Virus record (IMG/VR): IMGVR_UViG_2974615235_000001
Location: 1,236 to 65,235 of that record
From: a virus
Taxonomy: Duplodnaviria > Heunggongvirae > Uroviricota > Caudoviricetes
Strand: one strand, 5' to 3'
DNA: 64,000 nt
The position numbers and the translations under genes are program-made. Of this stretch, positions 27,113-35,244 are shown in pieces (within the stretch, counting starts at the first letter, position 1; each line of letters starts with the position of its first letter). The notes under the pieces were generated by a model. It saw only the letters and a program-made list of their open reading frames with translations, was not told the DNA's origin and made no database searches.

Positions 27113-28615
27113 TTATAAAGATTGTTTAACTCTCTCACGAATCTCTTGTAGCGAATGCTCTACTCGAAGAATTCCATCTTTAAAGACTGTCTTTAACTCT
27201 CCTTGACTTTCCTGTTCAGGTGTTTGTTGGTCATATAATACATATTCCCCTTCTTCAAGTTCTACACGTAGTAACCCTTTGGCAGACTTCTTCTTAGAGT
27301 CCGTGGCAGGGTCTTTACATACATCAACTTGATCGCCATCCCATACCACAGATGTAGCTTTAACGGCGCTGCCATGTGTATCACGAGTGACATACTGATA
27401 AGAGTAACTCCCTACACCAAGAACTACATTAGGAACAAAACCTTTAGCTTCAAGGCGCTTAATAATCTCCGCTTGACGTTCTAGAGTAATAGAGTCCCCA
27501 TAGATAGCACCAATATGGGAATCTAAGAGTTTATAACCTTGTTCTGTTTCAGTTCCTCCGAACAAATCCCATAGGCACTCCACTAGTCCTTTTTCCTCTG
27601 GGGTAGTGCCTTTCCCGAACTCATCAATAGTGCCACATAAAATGTCCACAGGATCGCCACTATCAGGGCGAATTACAAATGTACCATCTCGTGAAAGAAT
27701 GTCTTCTTTAAGTTCCACTAAGCCTTCATTTACGAATGCCCAGAAGTCAAAGCTATCGGATACGTGCGACAGAATACCTGTAGGCACTTTAGAGAACAAG
27801 TAACGTACATACTCTACCTCCGCTTCTAGTTTAGTAATACCTTTCTTTTCTACCATTCCCATAATATAACTAGTAGTAGTTGAATGTTCTGTAGCTGGTA
27901 CTGACACTCCTACCAATTCTTCCTCTACATTGGCATTATAATATTCTTCTGCAAAAAGAATACCACTTATAGTGTCTGTTCCTGCGAAGCTACACAGATG
28001 TCCGAAATCAGCCATTGCAGCGGCTTGTCTTCCAAACATCCCCCTTGCAGAGAAATTATGACACATGAAAGGTATCATGTCTAAATCACCTCCAGTACGT
28101 GTAAAGCTGTCAGTAAAAGCCCTCAAATACTCTTTGGCTGTGGTTGCACTGGTCTGTATAGGCCAATTCTCGTTAGAAAATGCAGTCTCTATATAATTAC
28201 TCAGCCAAGAAAAGTTCGGGTGAGTATTCTTGAAGGTAACAGGGGGTACACCGTAAGGTACAGACACTCCTTCTGGTAGTGCTTTAATTTCTATTGGTAA
28301 ATAACCTAGGTCGTGTAAATCCTCAAAGTGCGATACATCATAATCCATATTTAAACCTGAGTCGCAAATAAGTTTAATACGTGATATAACTTCATCCTTA
28401 GGTTGTGAAAAGAATGTGGTGTTCCACTCATCAATTAAGTAATCCTTGATAAAATACTGAAGACCAACAAAAACAACTTCGTTTGAGTTTGTGTTAGATA
28501 GTTTACCACTACGAGAGGTGTAATTAGAGTAAACTTCAGTAATACCCTCTCCGTAAGCGAATTTATGGAATTTCTTGTAAAAATCTGTGTGAGCTGTTGC
28601 GAATTTAATTGTCAT
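27113..28615 (-). CDS. nadV: nicotinamide phosphoribosyltransferase family protein (NadV/Nampt-like; possible nicotinamide ADP-ribosyl transferase)
   Basis: 500 aa; length and overall sequence typical of the Nampt/NadV family; paired with a PRPP-synthetase-like gene. Confidence 0.65.
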   Translation of the reverse strand: MTIKFATAHTDFYKKFHKFAYGEGITEVYSNYTSRSGKLSNTNSNEVVFVGLQYFIKDYLIDEWNTTFFSQPKDEVISRIKLICDSGLNMDYDVSHFEDLHDLGYLPIEIKALPEGVSVPYGVPPVTFKNTHPNFSWLSNYIETAFSNENWPIQTSATTAKEYLRAFTDSFTRTGGDLDMIPFMCHNFSARGMFGRQAAAMADFGHLCSFAGTDTISGILFAEEYYNANVEEELVGVSVPATEHSTTTSYIMGMVEKKGITKLEAEVEYVRYLFSKVPTGILSHVSDSFDFWAFVNEGLVELKEDILSRDGTFVIRPDSGDPVDILCGTIDEFGKGTTPEEKGLVECLWDLFGGTETEQGYKLLDSHIGAIYGDSITLERQAEIIKRLEAKGFVPNVVLGVGSYSYQYVTRDTHGSAVKATSVVWDGDQVDVCKDPATDSKKKSAKGLLRVELEEGEYVLYDQQTPEQESQGELKTVFKDGILRVEHSLQEIRERVKQSL

Positions 28616-28617
28616 GT

Positions 28618-29151
28618 TTATTTCTCCTCTCTTGAAAATTTATGTCCTCTGTGAGTCTTTTGCTTTCCTTTAAGAACTGCGTGGACATTTCTCCAATCAA
28701 AACCTAAGTCTTTTAAATCTTGATTGCCGTAGCATTTTGCCACAAGATTGCCTCCCATGTCAAACACTTTTGTTACGAACTTAGAATTTCTCGCCTCTTT
28801 ACCGAAAGGGTTAGATATAAGACCTTCTCTTGTAGCATGTTCCATATTCTCTTTTCTAGTATTCCATTCTAGATTTTCTAGCATATTGTTCAGCCTATTA
28901 CCGTCTATGTGGTTGACCTCTGGTTTATTTTCAGGGTTAGGTATAAAAGCTTCAGCTACCATACGATGTACACTTCTAGAATATTTAACACGAGATACAC
29001 ATAACCTCACCCTATAGCAGTTAGTTTTGTGATGTTCTTGTGCAAGGATATGGCCTCTTTTATTTCTGACCTTACCTAGATTGCTTACCTCGTAATTTTC
29101 AGGGAATTCTAGGCTATCTTTCCACACCTCCTTAGTAAAGCTTTCCATCAT
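28618..29151 (-). CDS. HNH homing endonuclease (NUMOD/AP2-like DNA-binding region)
   Basis: 177 aa; ...YEVSNLGKVRN... N-terminal module, H-N-H core EVNHIDGNRLNNMLENLEW; inserted between nadV-like and prs-like genes. Confidence 0.65.
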   Translation of the reverse strand: MMESFTKEVWKDSLEFPENYEVSNLGKVRNKRGHILAQEHHKTNCYRVRLCVSRVKYSRSVHRMVAEAFIPNPENKPEVNHIDGNRLNNMLENLEWNTRKENMEHATREGLISNPFGKEARNSKFVTKVFDMGGNLVAKCYGNQDLKDLGFDWRNVHAVLKGKQKTHRGHKFSREEK

Positions 29152-29980
29152 TAAACTCCATAACGTCTGTTTTATTTATATAACCTCCTACGGTCTGATA
29201 ACAGTATACTTTGTCGAAAATACCTCTTAGTTTAGATAAACCTTTAGGGGCAATCAAATGAGTGACATAAAGATCAACCGTACAACCCATTTCCTTAAGA
29301 ATCTCGCCTAACGCAATGTGCGTCCCGCAGTAATCACCTATGTCATCTACAATGATTACACGGCTTCCTACAGGTAATGTTGTATCTAATTCAGTCTTAA
29401 TAATACGCCCTGTAGAAATATCTCTTTCTTTAGAAGCTTGCACTACAGGAATACCTAGCACTTCCCCAATTTTCTTAGCTTTCTCTGTAGCACCTTTATC
29501 AGGGGAGATTACATAATCCCATTTTTGTGCATAGCCATCGTGACGTTTACAAGTGTACTGGAAACAAGATGTTTGGTCTGTGTGAGAAACCTCTGTGTTA
29601 AACATCCATTGCCCTTTAATTTCATTTAAGTTGTGTACATCGTATAAATGCACTTTGGAGAAAAAAGGGAAAACAGTTTCCATAAAAACTTTAAGAGGTT
29701 CTGGGTTTCCTTCCTCAAACATTCTGTCTGCCCTAGCATAAGGGAGGTAAGGTAAGTGAAGCTCTCTCTCCAAATCCTCACATCCCATTAACCACAGTGA
29801 GTTGTATATAAGGTCAATCTCTTCTCTGACCTGTTTACAAGGTGTGGTAGGGCAAACATTGAAATATAAGGTACCTTTAACTTTGTAAATAGCAGTGTCA
29901 ATTTTACAAGTTAATGCCCCATCAGAGTGTTCTAACCATTCAACCTCTATATTTTTATTATCTGCGAATAATGTAATCAT
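29132..29980 (-). CDS. prs: ribose-phosphate pyrophosphokinase (PRPP synthetase)-like protein; possible ADP-ribose pyrophosphokinase
   Basis: About 282 aa from ATG 29980 (RBS GGAGG); YARADR motif (cf. Prs YARQDR) and PRPP-binding loop VIIVDDIGDYCGT; the track's longer N-extension lacks an RBS. Confidence 0.6.
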   Translation of the reverse strand: MITLFADNKNIEVEWLEHSDGALTCKIDTAIYKVKGTLYFNVCPTTPCKQVREEIDLIYNSLWLMGCEDLERELHLPYLPYARADRMFEEGNPEPLKVFMETVFPFFSKVHLYDVHNLNEIKGQWMFNTEVSHTDQTSCFQYTCKRHDGYAQKWDYVISPDKGATEKAKKIGEVLGIPVVQASKERDISTGRIIKTELDTTLPVGSRVIIVDDIGDYCGTHIALGEILKEMGCTVDLYVTHLIAPKGLSKLRGIFDKVYCYQTVGGYINKTDVMEFNDGKLY

Positions 29981-30245
29981 AATTATTCCCCTCCAATTCA
30001 ATAATGTCATACTCTGTAATAATAGCCGTCTTAGCCCCACAACTAATAATAGGCTTCCCATCTGTAGATGTCAACACCTTAGCTACAATATTTCCTTCAG
30101 AGTCTACGATACCCACAGCGTTACTTCTAAGAGTTACCTTACCAGATGGCGTATTGCTAACACGTATCGCTGGTTGAAGTTCTCCTTCCCATTTCTTTTT
30201 ATTATTAGCTTGAATAGCATTCTTACATACACATATATAAGCCAT
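29958..30245 (-). CDS. hypothetical protein
   Basis: 95 aa; strong RBS GAGGAGG upstream of ATG 30245. Confidence 0.4.
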   Translation of the reverse strand: MAYICVCKNAIQANNKKKWEGELQPAIRVSNTPSGKVTLRSNAVGIVDSEGNIVAKVLTSTDGKPIISCGAKTAIITEYDIIELEGNNYDYIIRR

Positions 30246-30248
30246 TAA

Positions 30249-30497
30249 TTATTCCTCCTCGTAACAACATTGGACAGATACATCACGGTACACTACGTAA
30301 GACCCCTTATACAAACCTTTAATCCTCCTTATACAAGAACGACTGGCCTTGTGCTTATGTCGGTTTGAAAGTCCTGTAAGGATATAATCACATGTCGTAC
30401 TAAAAACTCCTTTTGACAATTCACGAATAATAATTAAAACCATTCCAAATAATATTACACCAAAGATCAAACTAATTACTATTAAATTCTTATCCAT
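30249..30497 (-). CDS. small membrane protein
   Basis: 82 aa; N-terminal TM; RBS GGAGG. Confidence 0.4.
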   Translation of the reverse strand: MDKNLIVISLIFGVILFGMVLIIIRELSKGVFSTTCDYILTGLSNRHKHKASRSCIRRIKGLYKGSYVVYRDVSVQCCYEEE

Positions 30498-30601: not shown

Positions 30602-31117
30602 TTACTTAATACTCTTGTTCCACTTAGATATTAACTTAGTTGCTTGTTTTAAGTCAAGTCCATTATGTCCACTTTCTATAATATTCTTGAAACTATTAGC
30701 ATCAGTATGACAAGCCACTACATTACCTTTTACATACCCTTTATTACTGTCTATGCGGTCTATAGTAAGAGTTCTTTTTGTAAGGGGTAGTCCTGTGTAG
30801 TAACACTTCTTAGCCTTCATAATATTCTTTACAGAGGTGAACGATAAGCCAAACTCAATGCCACGTTCTTTTGCGTTGTTGTACTTGGAAGACAGTTTTC
30901 TAGCTACCATGACATCGAAGGGTTCACCTTCATCAATACCACTGACTGAAACTGTCGTAGGTTCTTGGTACATGTCAGGGAAAACTTGTAGTAGCTTCTT
31001 CTCTATTGCAGACGACAACTTGAAAGAAGGAAATCTTGTGAAGTAATCGTCAAGTTCTTCCCTGTTTCTTTGGTCAATACAACGGTTAATATTCTTTAGC
31101 CAGTCACTTCTAATCAT
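30602..31117 (-). CDS. HNH endonuclease
   Basis: 171 aa; C-terminal ...IDRIDSNKGYVKGNVVACHTDANSF.. H-N-H core. Confidence 0.55.
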   Translation of the reverse strand: MIRSDWLKNINRCIDQRNREELDDYFTRFPSFKLSSAIEKKLLQVFPDMYQEPTTVSVSGIDEGEPFDVMVARKLSSKYNNAKERGIEFGLSFTSVKNIMKAKKCYYTGLPLTKRTLTIDRIDSNKGYVKGNVVACHTDANSFKNIIESGHNGLDLKQATKLISKWNKSIK

Positions 31118-31140: not shown

Positions 31141-31179
31141 AATAAAAAATCCTATAGACCGATTATGATCTATAGGATT
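31141..31179 (-). terminator. rho-independent terminator (minus strand)
   Basis: 11-bp perfect stem aatcctataga / tctataggatt; minus-strand transcript followed by U-run (plus-strand aataaaaa). Confidence 0.55.
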
Positions 31180-31190
31180 CGTCTTGTCAA

Positions 31191-31541
31191 CTAGTTTTGT
31201 GGTTTATTTTCTTTTTTATACTTAACCATCTCATCGAAATATTCTTTTCGTTCTTTAGTAGAAATAGTAGGTCTGGTATTATCCTTTATTTCTACTGACT
31301 TCTCTGTCTGATACATCTCCAAAGTTTTAACATCTAGGTTTTTATTGTAATCTGTTGTGTGCTTATATGTATTATCCGTACCTAACATGAGAAGCAACAA
31401 GACTACAAAAGACACTAGCAGGTAAATCTTAGTTAGTAGATTCCTGTTAGACTTACTAATAACTAAACCTGCAAGATAACCCATAGTTATGACTATAAAT
31501 ATAGGAACGAACTCTAAGAGGATATTAATTACATACTCCAT
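31191..31541 (-). CDS. membrane protein (two N-terminal TM helices); possible partner of SPFH protein
   Basis: 116 aa; hydrophobic N-terminus, charged C-terminus. Confidence 0.4.
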   Translation of the reverse strand: MEYVINILLEFVPIFIVITMGYLAGLVISKSNRNLLTKIYLLVSFVVLLLLMLGTDNTYKHTTDYNKNLDVKTLEMYQTEKSVEIKDNTRPTISTKERKEYFDEMVKYKKENKPQN

Positions 31542-31550
31542 GTAAACTCC

Positions 31551-32444
31551 TTATCGAATTTGATTGCCTACAGCCACTTGAGTGGCAATACTGTCTACCA
31601 TGTTAGAAGGGATGATCATCTTATTATCCGACTTTGCCATTTCATACATAATTTGAATATTATGGTATTGCAGGTACTCTGGCGTGACAGTAGATGCCAT
31701 GATACGGTTAACTTCTGCCTCTGCTTCTGCTTTCTCTACATCAATCTTACGTTGAAGTTGTTGCTCTTGGAGTTTACGCTCTAACTGTACTTTAGAAATC
31801 TCTAGTTGTGCATTCTCCTGCTCAATACGTTCTCTGCGTTCTGCTGCTAACTCTTGCGCTTTAGTTATAATCTCTGGGTAAGCTACATCCGCTAACCCGA
31901 TGTAACGAACTAAGAATGGTGTTGTTTGTTGTAATTCCTTTCTCAATTCATTGGCAAGGATAGTGTTAATACCCTCACGGCTAGAAGCAATCTCAGCTAT
32001 AGTATACTCTGCCAAAAGTTCACGCGCCTTAGAGCGAACTAGCTGTTGCGCATAAGTAGTGTAAATCTTACCTAAAGGTATCTGCTGATTAATAGCTGGA
32101 ATGCGATCAAACAACGAGTCATATTGTGCAGGGTTAGGTGTTAGAGTGAGTCGGATGTCGAAACTCATTTTTAGCTTATCTTTTGGCATGAACAACTCCA
32201 TACGCTCTGTGTAGGAGGAGTCTGATACATCCATAGTGATAAGCTTATCACAGTATGTCCAACACTTATCTAAGCGGAATTTAGAAGTGGTAATAACCCC
32301 CTCCTTATACCCGTTTTTCCCCATCACCTTGCCAACATGCGCAGGAGGAACTTCCACTTTTTCTCCCCAGAAGCACCCACCTAAAGAGAATGCCAATACA
32401 CCTATTGCTAATACCTTGCCTAAACGTTTTTTAATATTCTTCAT
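31551..32444 (-). CDS. SPFH/band-7 (HflK/C-, stomatin-like) domain lipoprotein
   Basis: 297 aa; lipobox FSLGG|C; central SPFH-like region; C-terminal Glu/Gln/Arg coiled coil typical of HflKC/flotillin proteins. Confidence 0.55.
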   Translation of the reverse strand: MKNIKKRLGKVLAIGVLAFSLGGCFWGEKVEVPPAHVGKVMGKNGYKEGVITTSKFRLDKCWTYCDKLITMDVSDSSYTERMELFMPKDKLKMSFDIRLTLTPNPAQYDSLFDRIPAINQQIPLGKIYTTYAQQLVRSKARELLAEYTIAEIASSREGINTILANELRKELQQTTPFLVRYIGLADVAYPEIITKAQELAAERRERIEQENAQLEISKVQLERKLQEQQLQRKIDVEKAEAEAEVNRIMASTVTPEYLQYHNIQIMYEMAKSDNKMIIPSNMVDSIATQVAVGNQIR

Positions 32445-32474: not shown

Positions 32475-32517
32475 ATAACCCTGAAACTCAGGATTGATAC
32501 AAAGTATACAGGGTTAT
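32475..32517. terminator. hairpin (ataaccctg ... cagggttat) with flanking T-tract; possible terminator between nrdA and the SPFH gene
   Basis: 9-bp stem with 25-nt loop, followed by ttttctt on the plus strand and a T-rich tract on the minus strand. Confidence 0.3.
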
Positions 32518-32543
32518 TTTCTTACGTCAACATTTATTTTAAA

Positions 32544-34253
32544 TTAACTTTCACACGCTACACAAACCCCTTTACTAGCATTAACTCCTGCTTGCGACCT
32601 AATGTAGTAGAGGCTCTTAATATTCTCGTCATTGGCGGCTACTGCATGTACATACATAATGTAAGCAGGGTCTTCCTCTGCGTCAAAAGCTAAGTTTAAG
32701 GACTGAGCTTGCGCTTGTTTGTATTTGTCCATAGCTTTCTGTCTACTAGAAGCAAGACGTATTACAGAGGTCTGGTCTATCTCAAAGAATGTCTTAAACA
32801 CTTCTTTCTCTTCATCAGACAAGAAATCTAGATGTTGGCAACTACCTTTGTTAGCCTGAACACTGTCTATTACTTCCTCTGTGTATTGTCCGTGTTTCTT
32901 CAACAGTTCCGCAAATAGGGGGTTGATACGGAACAGACCCCCAGAAGCACTACCCTCCGTGTAGGCGTTACCGTACCAAGGAGTAATACCTTGGCTCTCA
33001 CTTCCAAAGATAAGGGCACTAGTTACGTTAGGGGCTAATGCTACAGTGTGAGTATTACGTACCCCATAACCTTTGCACCACTCAGGTTCTCCCCACTCTT
33101 TAGCCATCCATTCAGACGCCTTACGTGCGTTCTTAGCCAAGTGGTCGAAGATTTCATTGTTCTTCATGTGAGCCTCAAAAGATTCAAAAGCTATCATATT
33201 CTTCTGTAAGTAAGAATGGAAACCTGAGACACCTAAACCTAATGCCCTGCTTTTCTCTGTACCACGCACCGCTTTCTCAAGACCTTTAACCCCACGAGCC
33301 TTTTCTAGGAAGTAACTTACAAGGCAGTCTAGGAAAACTGTCATCACGTATACAGCGTCTGTGTCTTTCCACTCATCATAAGTAGAACATACCATACCAC
33401 TAAGAACACAAGTGTACGTATGTTCTTCGTCAGAGTGTAACGTAATTTCCGTACAAAGATTACTTGCTTTACTACTTAAACCTAATGCTTCATACATAGG
33501 GGGTTGCGCCCGTTTAACTTTATCAGGGAAGTATAAGTAACCTCTCCCTGTAATCATCTTTGTAGATAGAACCCTTTGCATCCTAGCTACTAGGTCTTCA
33601 TCCTCTTCGTTAAGTCCTTTTACGTCCTCATCATAAAGGTTGTACCCTACGTTAGTCCCTTCCGGCTCATTCTTAACGTAGTTAGCTATCTCCCAGAAAT
33701 CGTTATGCTGTAGATCAATATAACCTGCCCAAGCCCCTCTACGTGCCCCGCCTTGTGACACCTTCTGCGACATGGTAACAAAGTCTTCTGCTACAGGTTG
33801 TACCCCGTTAGCCTTGCCACCACGAGATATAGATGCCCCACGCTCTCGGATACCACCTAAATAAGAGCTAGTACCAAAACCCTCTTGACTAAGCACTGCA
33901 CACTCTTTAAGGCTGTCGTAGAAGTCGTAAATAGAATCACCTACGTAGTTACCACTACATGACACTGGCATACCATAGTCAGTACCAGCATTCCCTAGCA
34001 CAGGAGTAGCTAAGTAGGCATGGTTGTCCATAATACACTCTTTCCAACGCCTTTTAAAGTAGTCTGTATTAGAGGGACAATGATTCCCTACAGCATTAAC
34101 TATACGATCAATCTGTTCTTCGAAAGTGTCTACACCTTTCATGTATTTAGTAAAGGCTTGCCAACTTAGTGTAGTAAACCAATCGGGGAGTTTACCTTCC
34201 TTTTGTAACTTCTTCCTCTCTTTAGAGAACTCCTCAAAAATACTATCCGACAT
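32544..34253 (-). CDS. nrdA: ribonucleotide reductase class I alpha subunit (compact, no ATP-cone)
   Basis: 569 aa; catalytic NxCxE (SNLCTEITL); C-terminal Cys pair (CVACES); overlaps and precedes nrdB. Confidence 0.7.
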   Translation of the reverse strand: MSDSIFEEFSKERKKLQKEGKLPDWFTTLSWQAFTKYMKGVDTFEEQIDRIVNAVGNHCPSNTDYFKRRWKECIMDNHAYLATPVLGNAGTDYGMPVSCSGNYVGDSIYDFYDSLKECAVLSQEGFGTSSYLGGIRERGASISRGGKANGVQPVAEDFVTMSQKVSQGGARRGAWAGYIDLQHNDFWEIANYVKNEPEGTNVGYNLYDEDVKGLNEEDEDLVARMQRVLSTKMITGRGYLYFPDKVKRAQPPMYEALGLSSKASNLCTEITLHSDEEHTYTCVLSGMVCSTYDEWKDTDAVYVMTVFLDCLVSYFLEKARGVKGLEKAVRGTEKSRALGLGVSGFHSYLQKNMIAFESFEAHMKNNEIFDHLAKNARKASEWMAKEWGEPEWCKGYGVRNTHTVALAPNVTSALIFGSESQGITPWYGNAYTEGSASGGLFRINPLFAELLKKHGQYTEEVIDSVQANKGSCQHLDFLSDEEKEVFKTFFEIDQTSVIRLASSRQKAMDKYKQAQAQSLNLAFDAEEDPAYIMYVHAVAANDENIKSLYYIRSQAGVNASKGVCVACES

Positions 34254-35244
34254 ATTCTAAACTCCATACAAAATCTTTCTCAGGCCAGTCCCTATTATAA
34301 GAAGAACCTAACTTATAGAAAAAGTCGTGTTGTGTGTCACCACCAATCATTTTATAGAACCACTTTGCGATAGGGTTGTAGGAAGGATTGTAAATCTTAT
34401 CCAATCCTAAGTTCTCTAAGCAAAAGTCTATACGGGATTCTACAAATCTTTCCATCTGCGTAGCTGTAATCCCTTTAATATTCCCTTTAGCGAATACCAT
34501 ATCTATAATACGTTTCTCATGTTCCATGATTGTCTTCGCAGCCTTGTATAACTTTTCTTTAAGTTTCTCTTCCTCATTCTCTGTGTATCCTAATTCTTTC
34601 ATCTCTTTAAGTAGGTTTTTAAAACACCAAGCTCCTGTTTCAGAGTGTAAGTTCTCGTCCTTAACAGAGAAAGTTAAGCCAGAGTGTATATTAGGCAGTT
34701 TGTTCTTCCCCTCTGCTTGGAAGTGCATAAGGAATGCAAAACTAGAATAGAGAATAGCCCCTTCCACCATACTGAATACCCCCACAGAATAAAGATCATC
34801 TTTATTACCTACACAGTCGTCTAAGAAGTTCATTCTAGACTTTAGAAGGGGGTCATCTGTAAAAGAGGAGTAGAACTCGTCATTGTCTAATCCTAGTAAC
34901 TCGTCTACACGTTGATAGAATCGACTGTGTACATTAAGCTCAATGTTACTAAAACAAGCCCCTACCATCTCAAACTCTGGTCGAGGGAACATTCGTTTAA
35001 ATCTGCCTCCCCAGTACTCATTACCCGCTAAAATTTCGTATTGAGTGAACAGACTTAGGGTAGTCATTACTCCGTGTAATTCGGCTTCGTCTAACTCTGT
35101 TTTAAGGCAATGTAAATCTTTCTCTACTTTAGGTTCGGTAGGTAGCCAAAATATTTCATTTTGTGTCTGTACCGCCTCAAGCAACTCAGGGTGGTCGTAT
35201 GTCGGTATTGTTTTCTTTATTTGACATCTAGGTTTCAATTTCAA
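34243..35244 (-). CDS. nrdB: ribonucleotide reductase class I beta subunit
   Basis: 333 aa; ferritin-like di-metal motifs (VEGAILYSSFAFL; KDENLHSE), C-terminal tail. Confidence 0.75.
   Translation of the reverse strand: MKLKPRCQIKKTIPTYDHPELLEAVQTQNEIFWLPTEPKVEKDLHCLKTELDEAELHGVMTTLSLFTQYEILAGNEYWGGRFKRMFPRPEFEMVGACFSNIELNVHSRFYQRVDELLGLDNDEFYSSFTDDPLLKSRMNFLDDCVGNKDDLYSVGVFSMVEGAILYSSFAFLMHFQAEGKNKLPNIHSGLTFSVKDENLHSETGAWCFKNLLKEMKELGYTENEEEKLKEKLYKAAKTIMEHEKRIIDMVFAKGNIKGITATQMERFVESRIDFCLENLGLDKIYNPSYNPIAKWFYKMIGGDTQHDFFYKLGSSYNRDWPEKDFVWSLEYVG

Follow-up and report, generated by a model that had tools for sequence, protein, structure and literature searches.

The marine Alteromonas phage vB_AmeM_PT11-V22 (V22) carries a cassette of two genes, ORF42 followed by ORF41, both on the minus strand, which in our judgement likely form a translationally coupled operon that was taken from bacteria and whose products combine a periplasm-facing ring or cage of the SPFH family with an adaptor in the inner membrane. 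The cassette is located in the nucleotide-metabolism block of the phage, within the window analysed here, by which we refer to the entire stretch of 64,000 nucleotides. SPFH proteins, which include prohibitin, stomatin, flotillin and HflK/C, build cages that fence off patches of the membrane. What is new in the present case is an SPFH subfamily with a predicted lipid anchor and periplasmic orientation, a small obligate partner outside any described family and the movement of this two-gene unit among the chromosomes of bacteria and numerous large lytic phages that are unrelated to one another. The SPFH assignment of ORF42 is itself not new, since its product gp42 carries the name 'stomatin-like protein' in GenBank and since the genome paper of 2020 annotated the gene as stomatin-like and counted it among the class II auxiliary metabolic genes, with the label 'quality control of membrane proteins' (PMC7289586). 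The elements that a first-pass annotation of the same DNA had placed in and around the pair were all recovered at their coordinates on the minus strand, and its description of the gene for the 116-residue protein as following the SPFH gene is right in the direction of transcription.

The product of ORF42 (gp42; 31551-32444, minus strand) is an SPFH (Band 7) prolipoprotein of 297 residues. Its N-terminus, which reads MKNIKKRLGK-VLAIGVLAFS-LGG-C24 (residues 1-24; 32373-32444, minus strand), displays in a regular-expression search and charge analysis the features that characterise lipoproteins, namely a basic n-region with five Lys or Arg among the first 12 residues, a hydrophobic h-region and a lipobox of the type [LVI][ASTVI][GAS]C. 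The latter corresponds to L21-G-G-C24, in agreement with the LGG lipobox read by the first-pass annotation, and it is followed by a Phe at the +2 position. Of the 120 closest homologues, 117 keep the lipobox cysteine, as do all 13 members of a curated set from phages and bacteria. The cysteine is missing in three close homologues and in the Comamonas loci L020, L021 and L025, and these Cys-less proteins, which retain a hydrophobic segment at their N-terminus, could be either signal-anchored or soluble.

The SPFH core and the long C-terminal helix that had been postulated for this protein are both reflected in profile searches and in its predicted structure. The Pfam domain Band_7 (PF01145) matches residues 31-213 of gp42 with E=4.7e-11 and a score of 43.5 bits, well above the cut-off of 23.6, and it is present in each of the 120 closest homologues. 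In a model obtained with AF2 (pLDDT 88 overall and >90 across the SPFH core), an alpha/beta core comprising residues 29-188 (31881-32360, minus strand) is followed by a C-terminal region of the oligomerisation type (31554-31874, minus strand), which was delimited from the model and from a profile alignment and in which a long helix (191-252, about 62 residues) and a shorter one (255-271) precede a hydrophobic NK-h-h-h-P segment built around P279, an invariant residue. The protein thus combines the alpha/beta fold, the long coiled-coil helix and the C-terminal closing segment that define the SPFH architecture. The core also includes a C61-x3-C65 loop, whose two cysteines are invariant in an alignment of 62 sequences of the V22 clade and lost in the KVP40-like and Pseudomonas-phage branches. 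A Foldseek search with the model returned full-length matches with E-values between 1e-11 and 6e-8, with prohibitin, HflC/K, erlin, stomatin and QmcA among the related folds and the QmcA-YbbJ cage among the hits. At the level of sequence, the relationships are distant. The single sequence of gp42 found nothing significant among PDB sequences and only noise in NCBIfam, and a profile weakly reached prohibitin and stomatin in the PDB, with an alignment to prohibitin that spans residues 138-277 and includes the corresponding segments '...NKVFVP' and 'NVVYLP'.

These comparisons do not single out one branch of the family. The 'stomatin-like' annotation is not specifically supported, as it is no better backed than a prohibitin-like one, and we have rejected an assignment to the stomatin subfamily in light of the lack of a specific affinity over prohibitin, the predicted periplasmic location and the non-NfeD partner. 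An identity as HflK or HflC was equally discarded, because the cassette has just the one SPFH gene and the product of this gene carries a lipobox. With prohibitin (PHB1/2) and HflK/HflC, gp42 shares the succession of membrane anchor, SPFH core, long helix, second helix and hydrophobic segment with a conserved proline, as well as the predicted side of the membrane, which is the periplasm or the intermembrane space. It is this resemblance that underlies the idea of a functional mimic of HflK/C, in which the phage cage would capture the periplasmic domains of the host FtsH and thereby alter the proteolysis of host or phage substrates. The cages of prohibitin and HflK/C are known partners of FtsH-type proteases (PMC2636767, PMC13086221), and the label assigned to the gene in the genome paper (PMC7289586) would fit such a role. 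We nevertheless regard this mechanism as rather improbable, since gp42 resembles HflK/C no more than it does prohibitin, erlin or flotillin, with identities of 7-17% for all of them, and since its profile failed to recover HflK/C among PDB sequences. Moreover, there is one gene instead of a K/C heteropair, a lipid anchor replaces the N-terminal transmembrane helix, and the neighbour that is kept throughout is, instead of an FtsH-type protease, a small protein with two transmembrane segments. Finally, bacterial carriers of the pair show ordinary chromosomal contexts, in which no linkage to FtsH was seen.

This neighbour, gp41, is encoded by ORF41 (31191-31541, minus strand), which starts 9 nt past the stop codon of gp42 and whose Shine-Dalgarno sequence AAGGAG overlaps this TAA codon. 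As the first-pass annotation had described, and as is evident from ORF and hydropathy analysis, it is a protein of 116 residues with two hydrophobic segments, which comprise residues 2-30 and 35-54 (31452-31538 and 31380-31439, minus strand) and form a transmembrane hairpin in hydropathy analysis and in the AF2 model. The hairpin is followed by a tail of 60 residues that is rich in Lys, Glu and Thr and that ends in a conserved helix (95-111). Alignments of the partner family give I-[EK]-D-[RN]-x-[RK]-x-P ... EER ... F-[DE]-x-[LM]-V-x-[YW]-K as the succession of motifs in this tail. Besides the hairpin, the model, whose confidence is moderate (pLDDT 72, with residues 59-66 below 50), contains a disordered linker and the terminal helix but no strands. 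The distribution of charges in 39 members of the partner family, with a mean of 3.95 Lys or Arg per 16 residues in the loop, an acidic N-terminus (0.08 Lys or Arg) and a net-acidic tail, predicts according to the positive-inside rule that the basic loop is cytoplasmic and that both termini, including the tail, are located in the periplasm (N-out/C-out). The topology prediction proposed as a check thus places both gp42 and gp41 on the periplasmic side, for which the widely kept lipobox of gp42 and its cysteine pair, invariant in the V22 clade, also speak.

The combination of an SPFH gene with a gene for a small membrane protein recalls operons such as qmcA-ybbJ and floT-yuaF, and the first-pass annotation had accordingly compared gp41 to partners of the NfeD type. 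The analogy holds for the operon logic, in that a membrane protein is encoded together with an SPFH scaffold in a unit of two genes. It does not extend to the partner itself, for which membership in the NfeD family is refuted by HMM searches: the Pfam NfeD profile (PF01957) did not match gp41 at E<=0.1 and matched none of 23 members of the partner family (0/23) at E<=0.01, with NCBIfam likewise returning none. Neither Pfam nor NCBIfam assigned these 23 members consistently to any family. The predicted tail, which is disordered except for one helix, also lacks the OB beta-barrel of NfeD proteins, and its predicted location is opposite to that in QmcA-type pairs, since QmcA faces the cytoplasm (PMC2636767). 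For the periplasm-facing and minor SPFH subfamilies, a survey from 2009 likewise did not find an NfeD partner (PMC2636767). A canonical SPFH-NfeD pair is thus extremely improbable, and the partner family, which encompasses about 271 sequence clusters, is previously undescribed and distinct from NfeD.

The association of the two genes is not confined to V22. Among 37 independent loci from phages and bacteria, a count that includes the V22 seed, 35 encode a homologous small protein with two transmembrane segments adjacent to the SPFH gene and in the same orientation. When queried with an HMM of the partner, 44 of 46 loci contained exactly one match, located on the strand of the SPFH gene and within about 1 kb, and 11 of the partner-positive loci had supplied no sequences to this HMM. 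The two HMM-negative loci, from the phages pf16 and PAK_P5, both harbour an ORF of similar build with two transmembrane segments immediately upstream. In a search in the reverse direction with three partner proteins as starting points, a Band_7 gene was found directly upstream with a 4-nt overlap in all three cases. The family escapes routine procedures, with a word-indexed homologue search with gp41 retrieving 5 close relatives only, and was uncovered through synteny, followed by a profile and an exhaustive HMMER scan. The search with the HMM was carried out on stop-to-stop ORFs, as ordinary ORF calls miss the partners in the high-GC genomes of Comamonas and Lampropedia, and it overturned the apparent absence of a partner in four Pseudomonas phages that was suggested by such calls. 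Judged by this synteny, ORF41 is a conserved and genuine partner and not a chance neighbour, and the proposal of a paired SPFH and small membrane protein, which the first-pass annotation had advanced from a single locus, is upheld across loci, with look-alike ORFs in the remaining two.

The same first-pass annotation had called SPFH scaffolds uncommon in phages, which is correct in so far as the V22 subfamily was detected in 138 of 50,697 phage records, yet the PHROG family of gp42, phrog_200 ('lipoprotein'), is large and mentions of phage-borne SPFH genes go back to 2006 (PMC1524935). Within the phage database that was searched, the subfamily is restricted to large virulent phages. Members of phrog_200 are found in KVP40-like phages, in T5-like Vibrio and Aeromonas phages, in Pakpuna/Nankokuvirus and in the phages ACP17 and XacN1. 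Their genes are homologous to gp42 with tblastn identities of 27-52% over more than 80% of the length, and as in V22 all of them contain a lipobox and are located beside a small ORF with two transmembrane segments. The Pseudomonas-phage branch differs from V22 by an inverted gene order, with the partner upstream, and together with the KVP40-like phages by the absence of the Cys-x3-Cys loop. In KVP40-like phages, the pair is located on the opposite strand within the baseplate cluster. The closest named homologue of gp42 is not encoded by a phage but on a Methylotuvimicrobium chromosome, where a protein with 59% identity is accompanied by a homologous partner of 138 residues. Operons in Comamonas and Thiopseudomonas are likewise found in ordinary chromosomal contexts outside of prophages, and bacterial homologues with the same partner adjoin housekeeping genes such as those for cytochrome c maturation and DsbD. 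A scan of genome contigs provided at least 8 bacterial loci, in which the taxonomic spread of bacteria is under-sampled. On the basis of these sequences, the module occurs both on the chromosomes of proteobacteria and in many large virulent phages that infect Gamma- or Betaproteobacteria. In the literature on phage SPFH proteins we found mentions at the level of annotation and no functional study, and no paper was found that pairs an SPFH protein with a lipobox.

The surroundings of the pair in V22 bear on two further possibilities concerning its function. On one side, the cassette is flanked by the gene for the large subunit of ribonucleotide reductase (nrdA; 32544-34253), which was assigned by a match to the Pfam domain Ribonuc_red_lgC with 9e-64. 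On the other side, it borders an HNH-type ORF (30602-31117), for which a PHROG match (4.5e-29) bears out the HNH endonuclease named in the first-pass annotation and for which a Pfam search gave no match. A NARP1-like pair of the anti-defence type is encoded near the SPFH pair in V22 as well as in pf16. The candidate lysin of V22 is the amidase ORF28, and no annotated lysis genes were found near the SPFH pair. A role as lysis module, either as a spanin-like pair or as a holin or antiholin regulator, would draw on a superficial likeness to o-spanin/i-spanin gene pairs and on the holin-like build of gp41 with its two transmembrane helices and charged tail. However, gp42 is a 297-residue SPFH protein and no short proline-rich o-spanin, gp41 forms a transmembrane hairpin and has no i-spanin coiled coil, the pair resides in the nucleotide-metabolism block at a distance from ORF28 and the operon is also found in bacterial chromosomes in non-prophage contexts. 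We thus rejected a spanin pair and consider any function in lysis to be very improbable.

A second possibility is superinfection exclusion or shielding of the envelope, where a periplasmic assembly would, on the model of T4 Imm/Sp or T5 Llp, block the genome entry or the periplasmic enzymes of secondary phages. Such a function would be in line with the predicted orientation of the pair towards the periplasm, with its own sigma-70-like promoter in an early or middle gene block, its restriction to large virulent phages within the phage database, its mobile and accessory-like placement across genomes and the proximity of the NARP1-like pair. We still view it as quite unlikely, as there is no similarity to known exclusion proteins, with the PADLOC defence libraries providing no match to gp42, gp41 or ORF40, and as close homologues with the same partner are found on bacterial chromosomes beside housekeeping genes. 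The location of these bacterial homologues next to the genes for cytochrome c maturation and DsbD instead points to a general role in the envelope.

In the mechanism that we favour, a periplasmic SPFH scaffold with an inner-membrane adaptor, gp42 would be exported, lipid-modified at Cys24 and anchored in the membrane leaflet that faces the periplasm, where its long C-terminal helices may mediate oligomerisation into a ring or cage, by analogy to its structural relatives. As a helical hairpin with both termini outside, gp41 would insert into the inner membrane and extend its tail of about 60 residues into the periplasm, where the motifs of the tail and its terminal helix might directly dock onto gp42. 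Due to this proposed docking, gp41 could be either a dedicated inner-membrane adaptor or a client of the scaffold. The operon would follow the logic of SPFH-NfeD pairs, but with a partner from a different family and with its products on the other side of the membrane. Its transcription by the host RNA polymerase would proceed from its own sigma-70-like promoter, presumably with the timing of an early or middle block. The assembled pair might then fence off patches of the inner membrane and in this way preserve or re-tune an envelope function during phage replication, such as the quality control of membrane proteins or the integrity of the barrier. Since deletions of SPFH proteins in bacteria often cause weak phenotypes (PMC13086221), demonstrating a clear role in physiology may prove difficult.

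The choice between an inner- and an outer-membrane location of gp42 is one that we infer. The residue at the +2 position is a Gly in 100 and a Phe in 11 out of 115 homologues and it is never an Asp. An Asp in this position is the canonical signal for retention in the inner membrane of E. coli. In its absence from all homologues, sorting is ambiguous and an outer-membrane location is conceivable. In such a trans-envelope arrangement, the Lol system would sort gp42 to the outer membrane and its cage would meet the tail of gp41, thereby linking the two membranes, for which the flexible and conserved tail of about 60 residues, predicted to be periplasmic, would be suited. We judge this arrangement to be unlikely. 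With an E. coli reporter, Gly and Phe at +2 have been reported to retain lipoproteins weakly in the inner membrane, which counts against it, and the rules for lipoprotein sorting in Alteromonas may differ from those in E. coli. The N-terminal hydrophobic segment of the Cys-less homologues could provide an anchor in the inner membrane only, and in all solved SPFH assemblies, as described in PMC13086221, the cage is located on the membrane of its partner or client.

Irrespective of its detailed location, the pair of periplasmic scaffold and adaptor offers a compact and testable system, consisting of two small genes in a cultivable pair of phage and host, which could reveal the role of a periplasmic SPFH assembly and its engagement by a partner that is unrelated to NfeD. 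If a function in exclusion or in envelope maintenance proved true, an SPFH protein of a phage would for the first time have an assigned function, whereas otherwise the pair would amount to common accessory genes acquired from the host. On a broader and more tentative level, to which we assign a low probability, large lytic phages of proteobacteria would have acquired, on repeated occasions, a periplasmic SPFH lipoprotein of bacteria along with its dedicated two-helix adaptor and would use the resulting cage as an envelope device during infection, which would constitute a so far undescribed type of SPFH-partner system. Such a device would, for example, serve in superinfection exclusion, maintain an energised inner membrane or bridge the inner and the outer membrane.

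The cassette had been interpreted in the first-pass annotation as a moron inserted between nrdA and the nadV/prs region. This interpretation is in part sustained by a promoter-like element and a terminator of its own, which are predicted from consensus matches, and by the location of related pairs at unrelated sites in other genomes. It is contradicted by the second hallmark of such elements, absence from relatives and/or a foreign composition, neither of which is found. In a 91-kb relative (L006/L007), whose two proteins share 89% and 74% of their amino acids with those of V22, the pair is found at the same site after nrdA with the same flanking elements, and the GC content of the cassette (0.33-0.43) is inside the local range. 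We have thus rejected a recent horizontal insertion in V22.

Both hairpins that the first-pass annotation had placed around the cassette (31141-31179 and 32475-32517) are real, with the upstream one being weaker, and both overlap with promoter-like sequences. The upstream element (32475-32530, minus strand; 10/12 in a promoter scan) contains a -35-like TTGACG (32530-32525) and a -10-like TATACT (32508-32503) separated by a spacer of 16 nt, and a hairpin that extends from 32517 to 32475, where a 9-bp stem (arms 32517-32509 and 32483-32475) encloses a loop of 25 nt and is followed by AUAUUUAAAUUUUU. Due to its long loop, this hairpin was missed by the terminator scan. Its local fold has a z of -3.3, with 2 of 200 shuffles folding as well, and it is not significant when folded within the full spacer of 99 nt. 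In L006/L007, the -35 and -10 regions and both arms of the stem are conserved and the loop past the -10 region diverges. As far as can be read from these features, the element probably ends the nrd transcript and initiates a new one for the cassette. The downstream element (31141-31190, minus strand; 11/12 in the promoter scan, also detected by the terminator scan and by folding) starts with a -35-like TTGACA (31190-31185) directly past the stop codon of gp41, and its -10-like CATAAT (31167-31162) is located in the loop of a hairpin between 31180 and 31147, whose 14-bp stem is followed by a T-run (-20.9 kcal/mol, z=-3.6, 0/200 shuffles). It is predicted to be the terminator of the cassette, overlapping with a promoter-like site for the next gene. 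Over the whole region, 32 promoter-like sites were found compared to 36.7 expected, and with no enrichment, the promoter assignments rest on conservation and not on statistics.

At both flanks, a sigma-70-like promoter and a stem-loop thus coincide in a spacer next to accessory genes, which is the arrangement of the promoter(early)-stem-loop (PeSL) cassettes of T4-type phages (PMC2839356, PMC4122927). V22 differs from these in not being a T4-type phage and in having, instead of many near-identical copies that can recombine, two copies in the 64-kb window with no common stem sequence; beyond these two, whose stems are unrelated, no convincing further PeSL-like element was found in the window. 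As in PeSL cassettes, both composite elements of V22 are located in intergenic spacers and bound an accessory module, and directly past the downstream element, which is 94% conserved in L006/L007, gene content switches between V22 and its relative, with a different gene coming next in the two phages.

The sequence of the window is 100% identical to that of the Alteromonas phage vB_AmeM_PT11-V22 (V22; MN877442 / NC_048847, 92,760 bp, genus Myoalterovirus), with record positions corresponding to window positions plus 1234. In this phage, ORF42 (31551-32444, minus strand), encoding the 297-aa gp42, is followed by ORF41 (31191-31541, minus strand), encoding the 116-aa gp41, with the ribonucleotide reductase genes (32544-34253 and 34243-35244) located upstream of the pair and the HNH-type ORF40 (30602-31117, minus strand) downstream. 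The elements described in a first-pass annotation, namely a lipobox protein, a two-transmembrane protein, hairpins and an HNH neighbour, are all found in the window. The identification of ORF42 as an SPFH gene is already contained in public annotation and literature, since it is named 'stomatin-like protein' in both GenBank and RefSeq and was classified in the genome paper, at the level of annotation only, as a class II auxiliary metabolic gene for 'quality control of membrane proteins' (PMC7289586), and SPFH genes of phages and giant viruses have been widely noted. ORF41 is annotated as hypothetical. What appears to be undescribed in the literature searched is the lipoprotein and periplasmic character of this SPFH subfamily, its obligate non-NfeD partner and the two-gene unit common to bacteria and many lytic phages. 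The pair is no surprise, and it offers a tidy and testable system.

The assignment of gp42 to the SPFH/band-7 proteins is borne out by its match to Pfam Band_7 (43.5 bits, cut-off 23.6), and in PHROGs the protein falls into phrog_200, 'lipoprotein' (E=1e-46). An AlphaFold2 model based on a 62-sequence alignment is confident (mean pLDDT 88) and displays a signal helix preceding an alpha/beta core (residues 29-188), a 62-residue helix (191-252), which accounts for the long C-terminal helical region noticed earlier, a second helix (255-271) and a tail of low confidence. Although its structural matches include the QmcA-YbbJ structure, the family is remote from these proteins at the sequence level: a single-sequence search of PDB sequences gave no significant matches, and the family profile retrieved only prohibitin (E=0.0026) and the stomatin of P. 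horikoshii (0.0036). The membership of gp42 in the SPFH family is thus secure, whereas the label 'stomatin-like' is supported no better than 'prohibitin/HflC-like'. A modulation of FtsH in the manner of HflK/C ranks second among four candidate roles during infection; gp42 has no particular affinity to HflK/C and is not linked to a protease.

At its N-terminus, gp42 contains a basic n-region and a hydrophobic core leading to the lipobox L-G-G-C24, whose cysteine is conserved in 117 of the 120 closest homologues and, without exception, in the 13 curated ones from phages and bacteria. A Cys-x3-Cys pair (C61, C65) is invariant across the 62-sequence alignment and, despite its loss in two distant phage branches, fits a location in an oxidising compartment. 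Among 115 sequences, 100 carry Gly at position +2 of the lipobox, 11 carry Phe and none carries Asp, so that inner and outer membrane cannot be told apart from the sequence of gp42. Three close homologues and three Comamonas loci (L020, L021, L025) lack the lipobox cysteine while retaining a hydrophobic N-terminus, which speaks for the inner membrane as ancestral site.

The small partner proposed for gp42 is present as well: gp41 combines two strong hydrophobic segments with a K/E/T-rich tail of 60 residues, and its Shine-Dalgarno sequence overlaps the stop codon of gp42. A two-transmembrane protein encoded 3' of the SPFH gene is found in V22, its 91-kb metagenomic relative and Methylotuvimicrobium, in the Acidovorax phage ACP17, the Aeromonas phages 4L372XY and AhSzq-1, the Xanthomonas jumbo phage XacN1, the KVP40-like phi-pp2 and the T5-like Vibrio phage PG07, and in most IMG/VR and bacterial loci examined. 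The partner sequences can be aligned across phage and bacterial loci and share an N-terminal LLN-x-x-P motif, a first transmembrane segment, a basic loop and a second segment, (Q)PSY(L)PK at the membrane exit, I-[EK]-D-[RN]-x-[RK]-x-P ... EER in the tail and a terminal helix F-[DE]-x-[LM]-V-x-[YW]-K. When run on all stop-to-stop ORFs of 46 SPFH loci, an HMM built from these sequences found exactly one match per locus in 44, always on the strand of the SPFH gene and within about 1 kb, and none away from it. The pairing holds in 35 of 37 independent loci (V22 seed counted), 11 of which had contributed no sequences to the HMM. In HHBS36_1 and one IMG/VR contig, the match is located directly upstream of the SPFH gene, where the HMM-negative phages pf16 and PAK_P5 contain a similarly built two-transmembrane ORF. 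Conversely, reverse look-ups from three partner proteins revealed a Band_7 gene immediately upstream, with a 4-nt overlap, in all three. When 1.84 billion cluster representatives were scanned exhaustively with HMMER, 271 partner clusters passed E<=1e-3 and 141 of them E<=1e-10, with lengths of 76-168 aa among the best 150 of the 271.

The proposed resemblance of this partner to NfeD did not hold up: none of 23 members matches NfeD, no Pfam or NCBIfam model covers the family, and the AlphaFold model of gp41 (pLDDT 72), in which a disordered linker joins a helical hairpin to a terminal helix, lacks an OB barrel. This agrees with a 2009 survey of prokaryotic SPFH proteins, which reported no NfeD partner for minor and periplasm-facing subfamilies (PMC2636767). 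Across 39 members, the N-terminus is acidic (mean K/R 0.08), the inter-helix loop strongly basic (mean K/R 3.95 in 16 residues) and the tail net-acidic (mean K/R 9.95 vs D/E 11.03), and this charge distribution predicts an N-out/loop-in/C-out topology, which would place the conserved tail of gp41 in the periplasm on the same side as gp42.

Family, fold, lipobox, pairing and predicted topology are computed results; in the best-supported reading, gp42 would be a lipid-anchored scaffold facing the periplasm and gp41 its inner-membrane adaptor or client. Following export and lipidation, gp42 would reside on a periplasm-facing membrane leaflet and oligomerise as other SPFH proteins do, possibly into a cage, with gp41 as a dedicated inner-membrane component binding it directly via its periplasmic tail. 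The arrangement follows the same operon logic as SPFH-NfeD pairs such as QmcA-YbbJ but would operate at the opposite membrane face, with a partner unrelated to NfeD.

The SPFH gene was detected by tblastn in 138 of 50,697 phage records, and the hosts among the matches listed are Gamma- or Betaproteobacteria, save for two weak Microbacterium matches. The carriers are large virulent types, comprising KVP40-like and T5-like Vibrio and Aeromonas phages, Pakpunavirus and Nankokuvirus, Pseudomonas phages of about 300 kb, ACP17 and XacN1. In KVP40-like phages, the pair interrupts the baseplate cluster between wedge genes and PAAR/hub genes and lies on the opposite strand (phi-pp2 locus L011, 2402-4582). 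The closest named homologue of gp42 is a chromosomal protein of Methylotuvimicrobium (59% identity), above those of other isolated phages (<=52%). The chromosomal surroundings of the bacterial operons are ordinary: in Comamonas they adjoin ResB/CcsA, in Thiopseudomonas DsbD together with a redoxin and a thioredoxin-like gene, and in other bacteria an ion channel or genes of fatty-acid synthesis lie close by. The module is thus common to bacteria and phages. For its function, the most economical starting point would be the general role in the envelope that these contexts imply and, among the four candidates, a general function in maintaining or re-tuning the inner membrane ranks first. Superinfection exclusion, the third, would suit an accessory membrane pair, but there is no similarity to known exclusion proteins, PADLOC gave no match and the bacterial copies are found in housekeeping contexts. 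A role in lysis ranks last and is unlikely. In two bacterial lineages, the operon directly follows genes of periplasmic thiol-redox chemistry or cytochrome c maturation, with ResB and CcsA preceding it in Comamonas, and with DsbD, an Lgt/redoxin fusion and a thioredoxin-like gene preceding it in Thiopseudomonas (bacterial loci L044, 1-4294; L021, 2426-5100; L019, 474-5187; L049, 498-4369); this link is absent from other lineages and may be a coincidence.

With respect to the hairpins thought to insulate the pair, the downstream one (31180->31147) is strong, with a 14-bp stem and a T-run (z=-3.6), whereas the upstream one (32517->32475), whose 9-bp stem encloses a 25-nt loop, is weaker and reaches significance in a local fold only. 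Both spacers combine a stem-loop with a sigma-70-like promoter, upstream TTGACG-16 nt-TATACT, with the -10 element at the start of the hairpin loop, and downstream TTGACA-17 nt-CATAAT, with the -10 element within the terminator loop. They are the only convincing composites of this kind in the window. Since promoter-like matches are not enriched across the region (32 found vs 36.7 expected), the assignments rest on position and conservation. In the relative, whose gp42 and gp41 are 89% and 74% identical to those of V22, promoter hexamers and stem arms are kept while the upstream loop has diverged, and the gene content past the downstream element differs, with ORF40 and an 82-aa ORF in V22 and other small ORFs in the relative. 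The composites resemble the PeSL (promoter(early)-stem-loop) cassettes of T4-type phages, which delimit accessory modules (PMC2839356, PMC4122927), although V22 is not a T4-type phage and its two stems are mutually unrelated. The description of the pair as a moron is thus apt for an insulated accessory module but not for a recent insertion, as it is found at the same site in the relative and its GC content is unremarkable.

GenBank names the downstream neighbour ORF40 'anti-sigma factor', whereas RefSeq has 'HNH endonuclease'; it matches a PHROGs HNH endonuclease family (4.5e-29), as anticipated for this flank, and also an Srd anti-sigma family (1e-22), and has no match in Pfam. It is missing from the relative, although the promoter/stem-loop that precedes it in V22 is kept there. 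The gap between ORF39 and ORF40 contains the 82-aa ORF (30249-30497, minus strand), which is annotated in neither GenBank record and was not found in the relative. It is preceded by a good Shine-Dalgarno sequence (ACAGGAGGAATT-ATG), and its product has a transmembrane segment at the N-terminus and a tail rich in Cys. Further downstream, ORF36 (NAPRTase/NAMPT_N, 27113-28615) and the Prs-like phosphoribosyltransferase ORF38 (29132-30061), separated by the NUMOD4/HNH_3 homing endonuclease ORF37 (28618-29151; all minus strand), resemble NARP1 (Namat and Adps), a phage pathway of NAD+ reconstitution that counters NAD+-depleting defences. The same Prs-like and NAPRTase pair immediately follows the SPFH gene in the Pseudomonas phage pf16 (L013, 3914-6401). 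The annotated HslV-family peptidase and ATP-dependent protease (NC_048847, 70987-71517 and 84421-85092), which lie at the edge of the window or beyond it, indicate that V22 brings its own cytoplasmic proteolysis genes besides the SPFH pair. On the upstream side, the ribonucleotide reductase large subunit is a single 569-aa ORF in V22 (32544-34253), while in the relative it is split into genes of 266 and 622 aa (L006, 2924-5899), the latter carrying a LAGLIDADG-type insertion.
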